Origin: a virus
Taxonomy: Duplodnaviria > Heunggongvirae > Uroviricota > Caudoviricetes
Strand: one strand, 5' to 3'
IMG/VR virus record: IMGVR_UViG_2778261122_000002
Coordinates: 1 to 4,160 of that record
DNA: 4,160 nt
Positions 1,991 to 4,160 of this stretch are shown here, one piece after another. The stretch's first letter is position 1, and every line of letters begins with the position of its first letter. The notes below the pieces were generated by a model. It searched no databases. It was not told where the DNA came from and saw only the letters and a program-made list of their open reading frames with translations. A program made the translations under genes and the position numbers.

Positions 1991-2707
<717 letters not shown>

Positions 2708-2710
2708 TTA

Positions 2711-2739
2711 AATCTATCACCGCAAGGGATAAATATCTA
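2711..2739 (-). promoter_or_regulatory. pRM promoter (cI maintenance promoter)
   Basis: On the minus strand: -35 TAGATA (+ 2734-2739), 17-bp spacer, -10 TAGATT (+ 2711-2716). Transcription would start at or near the cI ATG. Confidence 0.85.
2715..2731. promoter_or_regulatory. oR3 operator
   Basis: TATCACCGCAAGGGATA: a 17-bp lambda operator. Confidence 0.9.
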
Positions 2740-2754
2740 ACACCGTGCGTGTTG
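2738..2754. promoter_or_regulatory. oR2 operator
   Basis: TAACACCGTGCGTGTTG: a 17-bp lambda operator overlapping the pR -35. Confidence 0.9.
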
Positions 2755-2780
2755 ACTATTTTACCTCTAGCGGTGATAAT
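2752..2780 (+). promoter_or_regulatory. pR promoter
   Basis: -35 TTGACT (2752-2757), 17-bp spacer, -10 GATAAT (2775-2780); it drives cro and cII. Confidence 0.9.
2762..2778. promoter_or_regulatory. oR1 operator (variant)
   Basis: TACCTCTAGCGGTGATA: a 17-bp operator overlapping the pR -10. It differs at one position (A at 2769) from the canonical lambda oR1 TACCTCTGGCGGTGATA as I recall it. Confidence 0.85.
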
Positions 2781-2795
2781 AGTTGCATGTACTAA

Positions 2796-3005
<210 letters not shown>

Positions 3006-3012
3006 ATAACCC

Positions 3013-3044
3013 CGCTCTTACACATCCCAGCCCTGAAAAAGGGC
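3013..3044 (+). promoter_or_regulatory. nutR (boxA CGCTCTTA + boxB hairpin GCCCTGAAAAAGGGC)
   Basis: boxA at 3013-3020 and the boxB stem-loop at 3030-3044, just downstream of the cro stop. The rho-dependent tR1 region would lie between here and cII (3045-3120) but cannot be delimited by eye. Confidence 0.8.
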
Positions 3045-3104
3045 ATCAAATTAAACCACACTTATGGTGTATGCATTTATTTGCATACATTCAATCAATT
3101 GTTA

Positions 3105-3146
3105 TCTAAGGAAATACTTACATATGGTTCGTGCAAACAAACGCAA
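3105..3146 (-). promoter_or_regulatory. pRE-type promoter with CII binding site (TTGC-N6-TTGC)
   Basis: The minus strand reads TTGCGTTTGTTTGC (+ 3133-3146), the CII recognition repeat flanking the -35, overlapping the start of cII, with an AAGTAT-like -10 at about + 3110-3118. The arrangement is as in lambda pRE and is oriented toward cI. Confidence 0.55.
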
Positions 3147-3417
3147 CGAGGCTCTACGAATCGAGAGTGCGTTGCTTAACAAAATCGCAATGCTTGGAAC
3201 TGAGAAGACAGCGGAAGCTGTGGGAGTTGATAAGTCGCAGATCAGCAGGTGGAAGAGGGACTGGATTCCAAAGTTCTCAATGCTGCTTGCTGTTCTTGAA
3301 TGGGGCGTCGTTGACGACGATATGGCTCGATTGGCACGACAAGTTGCTTCAATTCTCACCAATAAAAAACGCCCGGCGGCAACCGAGCGTTCTGAACAAA
3401 TCCAGATAGAATTCTGA
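3124..3417 (+). CDS. cII: CII transcriptional activator, 97 aa
   Basis: MVRANKRNEALRIESALLNKIAMLGTEKTAEAVGVDKSQISRWKRDWIPKFSMLLAVLEWGVVDDDMARLARQVASILTNKKRPAATERSEQIQIEF matches lambda CII. The ORF-track start at 3064 is an upstream extension; the ATG at 3124 gives the native 97-aa length and has a purine-rich SD-like stretch (TAAGGAAA, 3108-3115) upstream. Confidence 0.95.
   Translation: MVRANKRNEALRIESALLNKIAMLGTEKTAEAVGVDKSQISRWKRDWIPKFSMLLAVLEWGVVDDDMARLARQVASILTNKKRPAATERSEQIQIEF
3364..3388 (-). terminator. oop-type intrinsic terminator, antisense within the 3' end of cII
   Basis: On the minus strand: GCUCGG, loop UUGCCG, CCGGGC, then G and UUUUUU (+ 3364-3388). This corresponds to the terminator of the lambda oop antisense RNA. 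Whether an oop RNA is actually made here is uncertain because the promoter region is altered (see findings). Confidence 0.5.
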
Positions 3418-3449
3418 GGTCATTACTGGATCAATCCACAGGAGTAATT

Positions 3450-3611
3450 ATGACAAAACGTCGTAAGAAATACCAGGAAAAAGAAGAGATTCGACACCCT
3501 GATTCACCTGAGGGATTAGTGGTAGCCGCAGCAAATAACAGGGCGTTCGCAGAGCGCCTTGTTGGTGTTTACAGACTAGCCAAAGCAGGAGTGAAACATG
3601 GGCGTCGTTAA
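3450..3611 (+). CDS. Small basic hypothetical protein (53 aa) at the cII/O junction
   Basis: ATG at 3450 with SD GGAGTAA at 3441-3447; translation MTKRRKKYQEKEEIRHPDSPEGLVVAAANNRAFAERLVGVYRLAKAGVKHGRR; stop TAA at 3609-3611, 14 bp past the O-like ATG. The start codon and RBS are those of lambda O, but the coding sequence diverges after the second codon, so it may be a genuine small gene or an ORF created at the recombination joint. Confidence 0.4.
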   Translation: MTKRRKKYQEKEEIRHPDSPEGLVVAAANNRAFAERLVGVYRLAKAGVKHGRR

Positions 3612-4160
3612 GTTAGCTGATTACAGGCCTCAACTGGAGGTCGTGGAGCATCGCGTGGCAGATACCGAAGATGGTTTCATGCGCGTTGCTAACGAGATTA
3701 CCGACAGTCTGCTGATGGCTGATTTAACCGTCCGGCAGTTGAAGGTGATGCTCGCTATCATGCGCAAGACATACGGATTCAATAAGCCGATGGATCGACT
3801 CACAAACACGCAGATAGCAGCCATGACAGGTATTCATCACACTCATGTTTGCGCTGCCAAGCGCCAGCTTATTGAGCGTAAATTCCTCATTGCTGATGGC
3901 GTGAAAATCGGAGTGAACAAGGTGGTTTCTCAGTGGATTATCCAGGACAGCTTAACATTAGCTAAAACAGCTAATAAAACATTAGCCAAGTCGGCTAATG
4001 GGTATAAGCCAAGTCAGCTAAACACAAAAGACAATATACAAAAGACAATAAATACAAATACCCCCTTACCCCCTAACGGGGGCGGCGATGGGCAGGTTAA
4101 ACCTGAACGTCGCAAGGCAGAACGAATCGACTACGAATCCTTCCTGAACGCCTACAACAC
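3598..4160 (+). CDS. Replication initiator, lambda O-like (5' partial; continues beyond window end)
   Basis: ATG at 3598 with SD AGGAG at 3586-3590; the frame stays open to the window end (187 codons). MGVVKLADYRPQLEVVEHRVADTEDGFMRVANEITDSLLMADLTVRQLKVMLAIMRKTYGFNKPMDRLTNTQIAAMTGI... aligns with the lambda O N-terminal domain (lambda: ...DLTKRQFKVLLAILRKTYGWNKPMDRITDSQLSEITKL), clearly homologous but divergent. Iterons and an AT-rich ori lie inside the coding sequence, as in lambda O. Confidence 0.88.
   Translation, partial: MGVVKLADYRPQLEVVEHRVADTEDGFMRVANEITDSLLMADLTVRQLKVMLAIMRKTYGFNKPMDRLTNTQIAAMTGIHHTHVCAAKRQLIERKFLIADGVKIGVNKVVSQWIIQDSLTLAKTANKTLAKSANGYKPSQLNTKDNIQKTINTNTPLPPNGGGDGQVKPERRKAERIDYESFLNAYN
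3957..4022. repeat. ori iterons: three 19-bp palindromic repeats on a 23-24 bp period inside the O-like gene
   Basis: ATTAGCTAAAACAGCTAAT (3957-3975), ATTAGCCAAGTCGGCTAAT (3981-3999) and ATAAGCCAAGTCAGCTAAA (4004-4022). Each has dyad symmetry (TTAGCY...RGCTAA); a possible degenerate fourth copy lies around 3945-3956. Confidence 0.7.
4023..4061. other. AT-rich DNA-unwinding-element-like segment of the putative ori
   Basis: ACACAAAAGACAATATACAAAAGACAATAAATACAAATAC, containing a tandem CAAAAGACAATA repeat (4025-4036 and 4039-4050), immediately followed by a GC-rich block CCCCCTTACCCCCTAACGGGGGCGGCG (4062-4088). This iteron, AT-rich, GC-rich order mirrors lambda ori. Confidence 0.5.

Follow-up and report, generated by a model that had tools for sequence, protein, structure and literature searches.

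The window, by which is meant the whole 4160-base stretch of DNA analysed here, is a lambdoid early region. It begins on the minus strand with the gene for the N antiterminator (1-327), which is 90% identical to lambda N, a lower value than might be read from the adjoining OL region, where the identity to lambda is 97%; megablast similarity to lambda DNA was found to start only from base 71. Between OL and cI, at the position of rexA and rexB in lambda, the minus strand carries an open reading frame for a P63C-domain protein of 311 residues (810-1745, with a longer open reading frame extending to 1802), identified by its match to Pfam PF10546 (E 6.6e-23). In E. coli ST131 MB1159 and E. coli EC28, too, a similar P63C gene adjoins this cI. 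The gene may be expressed in the lysogen and have an accessory or exclusion role; PADLOC returned no match for this frame or for the gp53-like frame described below.

The region from cI to cII (1991-3417) is of the lambda immunity type, as judged by the identities of CI, Cro and CII and by comparison of the operators. The cI gene (1991-2704, minus strand) specifies a protein identical to that of lambda at 235 of its 237 residues (99.2%), the cro product (2805-3005) is identical to lambda Cro throughout (66/66, 100%), and the cII product (3124-3417) is 97.9% identical to lambda CII. OR3 and OR2, in the operator region at 2715-2778, are the same as in lambda, and OR1 (TACCTCTAGCGGTGATA) departs from it by one base, a G-to-A change at 2769 that is also present in HK97. 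A further G-to-A change at 2781, directly 3' of the PR -10 hexamer, is found in neither lambda nor HK97. The immunity determinants of the window (cI, cro and the OR operators) are thus those of lambda at the sequence level. Within the 3' end of cII, the terminator scan located an oop-type terminator hairpin on the minus strand (3366-3393), at a position matching that of the annotated oop terminator of P22. In a scan of the whole window at an E-value of 0.01 or below, no Rfam family matched any part of it, the oop region included.

Past cII the affinity of the DNA changes. A 33-bp conserved block comprising the oop promoter/5' end and a ribosome site lies at 3425-3457 (ACTGGATCAATCCACAGGAGTAATTATGACAAA) and is a verbatim copy of the conserved block quoted in PMC3349717. 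Similarity to lambda was found to stop at 3457 and, in a three-way comparison, similarity to HK97 to start there, so that a lambda-like cII is joined to an HK97-like replication module at the conserved oop-promoter block. A promoter scan of 3300-4160 returned no sigma-70 consensus site, and the hybrid oop promoter is therefore without support from that scan. The first gene of the replication module is a 53-codon open reading frame on the plus strand (3450-3611), whose product is the same as HK97 gp53 at all 53 residues and is also 100% identical to the HK544 homologue. It overlaps the start of the O gene by 14 nt and has no Pfam match.

The remainder of the window is occupied by the 5' part of an O-family initiator gene of the HK97 gp54 type (3598-4160, plus strand), which starts at an ATG at 3598 preceded by GGAG, stays open to the window end and is cut there after 563 nt (187 codons). 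The full-length gene is 822 nt in HK97, HK544, Nil2, EC28 and 2013C-4991. Residues 19-113 (3652-3936) form a Phage_rep_O origin-binding domain, matched over model positions 1-95 of 95 of Pfam PF04492 (E 2.6e-33, 114.8 bits against a cut-off of 28.7). The truncated protein is 33% identical to lambda O over 184 aligned residues and 38.9% identical over the N-terminal 113 residues, which together with the full-length domain match bears out the earlier note in describing this domain as homologous to that of lambda O and much diverged from it. A tblastn search with the N-terminal domain gave a bimodal distribution of identities, with 51 records at 95% or above, 2 at 60-80% and 291 below 60%, indicative of a discrete and tightly conserved HK97-type O allele.

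Directly after the N-terminal domain, a repeat search revealed a four-copy family of 18-19 bp repeats starting at 3937, 3957, 3981 and 4004, each copy of which is an imperfect inverted repeat at the DNA level. Iteron 1 (3937-3955, ATTATCCAGGACAGCTTAA) is the weakest copy, and the corresponding site in the relatives reads ATTAGCC at its start. Iteron 2 (3957-3975, ATTAGCTAAAACAGCTAAT) is the same in HK97, HK544, Nil2, EC28 and 2013C-4991, iteron 3 (3981-3999, ATTAGCCAAGTCGGCTAAT) shows the best dyad with 8-nt arms (CATTAGCC/GGCTAATG), and iteron 4 occupies 4004-4022 (ATAAGCCAAGTCAGCTAAA). When ATTAGCCAAGTCGGCTAAT was sought with three or fewer mismatches, the matches in the window were confined to the iteron array, against an expectation of 0 from 200 shuffles, and the half-site pattern TTAGC-N7-GCTAA gave four consecutive matches spanning 3938-4021. 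From one start to the next, the iterons are 20/24/23 bp apart, exactly as are the annotated lambda iterons 1-4 and the P22 repeats. The sequence of the window iterons, TTAGCC-N5-GGCTAA, is unlike the lambda consensus (ATCCCTCAAAACGAGGGA). The non-lambda iterons previously described inside the O gene are accordingly real and distinct from those of lambda, but their extent has to be corrected from three copies beginning at 3957 to four beginning at 3937, the overlooked copy being the weak iteron 1.

The iterons run into a segment of 80% A+T (4019-4058) that contains ACAAAAGACAATA(T/A) twice and is the presumed unwinding element. The annotated P22 rep_origin has an identical tract at this place, and ACAAAAGACACTATTACAAAAG of lambda is similar. 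A G+C-rich element follows at 4059-4082, consisting of two copies of TACCCCCT and then AACGGGGG, with a short CCCCC/GGGGG palindrome; it forms the right edge of the origin and is likewise kept in the annotated P22 rep_origin.

Iteron 1 carries the only base that sets 3418-4160 apart from the closest E. coli copy. Position 3941 is T in the window and G in all five relatives inspected (HK97, HK544, Nil2, EC28 and 2013C-4991). The G-to-T change converts the left arm of iteron 1 from TTAGCC to TTATCC, weakening the dyad, and replaces Ser115 of O by Ile just past the DNA-binding domain, with the frame remaining open. These facts could be read as the mark of a decaying or attenuated origin, in which the T disables iteron 1 and the prophage replicates with impaired efficiency: the T is absent from every one of the five relatives and strikes the conserved G of the TTAGCC arm. 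This reading is unlikely, given that the change is a single substitution in an open frame, that iterons 2-4 are intact, that iteron 1 is the least canonical copy in the relatives too, and that a sequencing error is possible. It is more doubtful still that 3941-T is a functional natural variant of the origin, for instance one lowering O-some cooperativity or copy number; if it were, it would offer a natural handle on the contribution of iteron 1 in this class of origin. A neutral polymorphism or a sequencing error is more probable than such a functional variant.

The 563 bases of the O gene in the window share 99.3% identity with gene O of HK97 (gp54), and the two proteins agree at 185 of 187 residues (98.9%); identity to the O protein of HK544 is 97.9%. 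Iterons 2-4 are the same as those of HK97, and iteron 1 differs by one substitution. The same O part is 99.3-99.5% identical to the DNA of more than 40 phage records, among them HK97 gp54, HK544, HK446, Nil2, the Stx phages 1717 and 2851, and gene 18 of Salmonella phage ST104, and 74 phage records match it at 99% or above. The closest prophage, in E. coli 2013C-4991, differs from the window by one base, that at 3941, across the 743 bases of 3418-4160, which hold gp53 and the truncated O (the gp53-O' module). At a coverage threshold of at least 80%, 394 of the 5,426 complete E. coli genomes contain this module. Neither the iteron-1 variant nor the conserved stretch of iterons 2-3 turned up when the GTDB species representatives were scanned for the exact patterns; given the 394 E. 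coli genomes with the module, this absence probably reflects the choice of representative strains. An exact-pattern scan of IMG/VR for the iteron-1 variant also gave no match. Taken together, these data lead us to read the end of the window as the left half of an HK97-type lambdoid replication module, consisting of gp53 and O/gp54 with its internal origin, joined to lambda immunity, and we put the probability of this reading, the initiator-iteron mechanism of the origin included, at roughly 0.9. We propose to annotate the locus as an O gene of the HK97 type that contains its own origin, the expected partner being a DnaB-type helicase.

Do the initiator and its iterons vary together? An alignment of eight sequences, representing seven initiator types and five iteron classes, revealed that the segment at residues 78-91 of O varies together with the sequence of the iteron arms across the seven types. 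HK97 and the window combine TTAGCC/GGCTAA arms with the segment TGIHHTHVCAAKRQ, and Klebsiella RCIP0114 combines arms of the TTAGCC type with TGIHHTHVCKAKNE; lambda and Salmonella phage Oslo both have TCCCTC/GAGGGA arms and the segment TKLPVKRCNEAKLE, and P22 has TTTACC/GGTAAA arms and TGMAPTKCSTAKNE, the spacing being 20/24/23 bp in all of these. In mEpX1, TGTCTC/GAGACA arms at a spacing of 20/24/24 bp go with TGLSRQNVNKAKKE, and in phi80, TTCCCG/CGGGAA arms at 21/21 bp go with TGLSDTHVSDALKS. Residues 78-91 thus constitute a putative recognition segment and may correspond to a recognition helix. The initiator of RCIP0114 (1042-1131) is only 55% identical to that of the window over 119 N-terminal residues, yet it has the motif TGIHHTHVC and TTAGCC-type iterons, a likeness which suggests, from the aligned sequences, that the same origin specificity persists across genera. 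Oslo, in turn, shares with lambda both the motif at residues 78-91 and the iteron type. The Oslo O protein (701-1130) was observed to begin like that of HK97, with MGVVKLADYRP, and then to become lambda-like; its iterons read ATCCCCCAAAATGAGGGA at 20/24/23, its partner is annotated as a primase/helicase, and it is another intragenic mosaic.

Such co-variation is an established principle and not a new one: O, gp18 and the initiator of phage L bind different iterons located within their own genes (PMC8022706). For the window, the proposal of the earlier note that initiator and iterons co-vary and would define a non-lambda replicon specificity under lambda immunity agrees with the present data, because both partners differ from those of lambda, the same pattern recurs in seven O types, and cI, cro and the OR operators are those of lambda. 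The locus does not have the lambda type of replicon: its iterons are TTAGCC-N5-GGCTAA, its N-terminal domain is 38.9% identical to that of lambda O, and its segment is TGIHHTHVCAAKRQ as against TKLPVKRCNEAKLE. It does share with the lambda O/P22 gp18 family at large a Phage_rep_O domain and an internal origin following that domain. The origin-recognition half of the initiator would, by this evidence, move as a unit with its iterons.

The replicon of the window can also be compared with that of P22. In the HK97 record gp54 is described as resembling P22 gp18, near-identity of the DNA to P22 gene 18 sets in at window position 4014 (P22 4917 onwards), at the boundary of iteron 4 and the A+T-rich tract, the C-terminal part of HK97 O is 64% identical to gp18, and the partner is a helicase like P22 gp12. 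It could hence be argued that the module has the gene 18/ori-P22 specificity, as in the laboratory hybrid hy106. This is highly improbable in view of the half that precedes position 4014, where identity to the N-terminal domain of gp18 is as low as 39.8%, the putative recognition segment at residues 78-91 differs, and the iterons have TTAGCC/GGCTAA arms and not the TTTACC-N5-GGTAAA of the P22 iterons, which are of the ATTTACCAGATCGGTAAA type. With the N-terminal domain, the iterons and the segment all different, an origin-recognition specificity unlike that of P22 is expected, the helicase-interaction part being common to both. The step from about 40% identity in the N-terminal part to near-identity in the 3' part indicates that the initiator gene is itself mosaic, and the DNA comparison places the apparent recombination boundary inside it, between a recognition half and a helicase-interaction half, the latter belonging with the DnaB-type partner. 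The preferred reading remains that of an HK97-type replicon.

The combination of this replicon with lambda immunity had been presented as new by implication, and an origin specificity previously unseen under lambda immunity would be the corresponding interpretation. What speaks for it is that coverage of the window reaches 80% in none of the phage records and, among complete E. coli genomes, in only two (at 83%), and that the exact mosaic of P63C open reading frame, lambda-like cII, HK97-type module and N allele is absent from these collections. The joins themselves, however, are found elsewhere. HK97 has a CI that is 100% identical to that of the window (and 99.2% to that of lambda) and the same OR1 variant beside the same O and iterons; it has a Cro with 98.5% identity to lambda Cro and carries the OR2 and OR3 of lambda. 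HK97 is, moreover, just the kind of case that the earlier note had described as one that would make the combination a known hybrid, namely a known phage with the same iterons and O domain under lambda immunity (iterons 2-4 identical, O part 99.3%). In HK544, annotated lambda-like PL, PRM, PR, cI and cro lie directly upstream of an HK97-type gp53, O and helicase. The lambda immunity of these two phages is deduced from sequence identity and from the annotation of their records. In E. coli EC28 and AVS0969, the stretch cro-cII-gp53-O' (2700-4160) is matched contiguously at 99.2%, and in further E. coli genomes it is matched as two separate pieces covering about 80% of it, with an annotated LexA-family repressor, Cro, CII and replication protein. 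Several of these two-piece matches keep rexA and rexB beside this replication gene. Given also the recurrence of the gp53-O' module in complete E. coli genomes, a new combination is hardly credible: HK97, HK544 and E. coli prophages already pair lambda immunity with this module, and both the module and the pairing are known.

Nil2 was considered as a further carrier of lambda immunity and rejected, its cI (654 nt) and cro (216 nt) differing in length. In E. coli ST131 MB1159 (7454-8769), the P63C open reading frame, cI, cro and cII of the window are matched at 99.2%; a 273-nt open reading frame is present there instead of gp53, together with a 981-nt replication gene that lacks the iteron 2 sequence of the window. 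MB1159 seems to combine the same immunity region with another initiator allele. The mosaic of the window as a whole is ordinary for lambdoid prophages, because its key joins are seen elsewhere, cI-cro-cII-gp53-O' on the one hand and the P63C open reading frame beside this cI on the other. It is a textbook example of how lambdoid phages exchange immunity and replication modules at short conserved sequences, the junction here being 3425-3457. That lambda immunity can be combined with a non-lambda replicon is an idea that goes back to laboratory hybrids such as hy106 (PMC3349717).

The gene following O in HK97, HK544, Nil2, EC28 and 2013C-4991 is that of a 1377-nt DnaB-family helicase, identified by Pfam for HK97 gp55 (DnaB_C, E 1e-77) and by annotation for the other four. 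The partner gene, previously placed beyond the window as either P-like or DnaC/DnaB-like, can be narrowed accordingly: every relative examined has a DnaB-family helicase and not a P-like loader, and for the window's own phage a P22 gp12-type helicase is the expected partner, not a loader of the lambda P type. On the model of lambda O acting at ori-lambda, dimers of the initiator N-terminal domain would bind the four 19-bp iterons at 3937-4022, the resulting O-iteron nucleoprotein complex would destabilise the adjoining 80% A+T stretch at 4019-4058, and the C-terminal half of O, past the window end, would recruit the phage's own DnaB-family helicase, coded directly downstream in the relatives. 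Specificity would reside in the match between the N-terminal domain and its iterons; this pairing differs from those of lambda and P22, the geometry being common. Experiments on initiator binding or origin activity of the HK97-type sequence were not found in the searchable literature, so that function rests here on homology and architecture. It is barely tenable that the repeats only reflect a repetitive peptide linker (LAKTANKTLAKSANGYKPSQLN) and are not protein-binding sites: they do lie in coding sequence and translate to a loosely repetitive peptide, but each unit is an inverted repeat in the DNA, a symmetry that a repeated peptide has no need of, the spacing of 20/24/23 is kept in lambda, P22, RCIP0114 and Oslo despite differing repeats and peptides, and the equivalent sites are annotated as binding sites in lambda and phi80.

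What distinguishes the locus from the known systems? HK97 (AF069529) is very close in its replication module, with gp53 100% and O 98.9% identical and with iterons 2-4, the A+T-rich tract and the G+C-rich element the same, and it resembles the window also in its identical CI and shared OR1 variant. It differs in its cII allele, which is 36% identical to that of the window, the latter being of the lambda type (97.9%), in having G at the position of window 3941, and in carrying gp48/gp49 in place of the P63C-domain open reading frame. The wild phage HK544 (JQ086374) likewise has lambda-type immunity adjoining HK97-type gp53, O and helicase genes, with a Cro 100% and an O 97.9% identical to those of the window; unlike the window, it has an Sf6-like cII allele (49% identity), other genes at the rex position and another single-base variant in iteron 1. 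P22 gene 18/ori-P22 agrees with the window in architecture, spacing, A+T-rich tract and type of partner helicase, but its orf48, judged by eye, is not recognisably similar to gp53. The laboratory hybrid lambda cI857(18,12)P22, that is, hy106 (imm-lambda, repP22), has its junction in the same conserved oop-promoter block (PMC3349717), and an imm-lambda/repP22 hybrid escapes inhibition aimed at the lambda replicon (PMC3349717). Lambda O and ori-lambda share with the window the same Pfam domain, an origin placed in the initiator gene directly after the N-terminal domain, and four dyad-symmetric iterons at 20/24/23 followed by an 80% A+T tract of about 40 bp with a related sequence. They differ from it in the N-terminal domain (39% identical), in the iteron arms (TCCCTC/GAGGGA, not TTAGCC/GGCTAA), in an unrelated C-terminal domain, for which HK97 and lambda give no meaningful alignment, and in the partner, which in lambda is the P loader.
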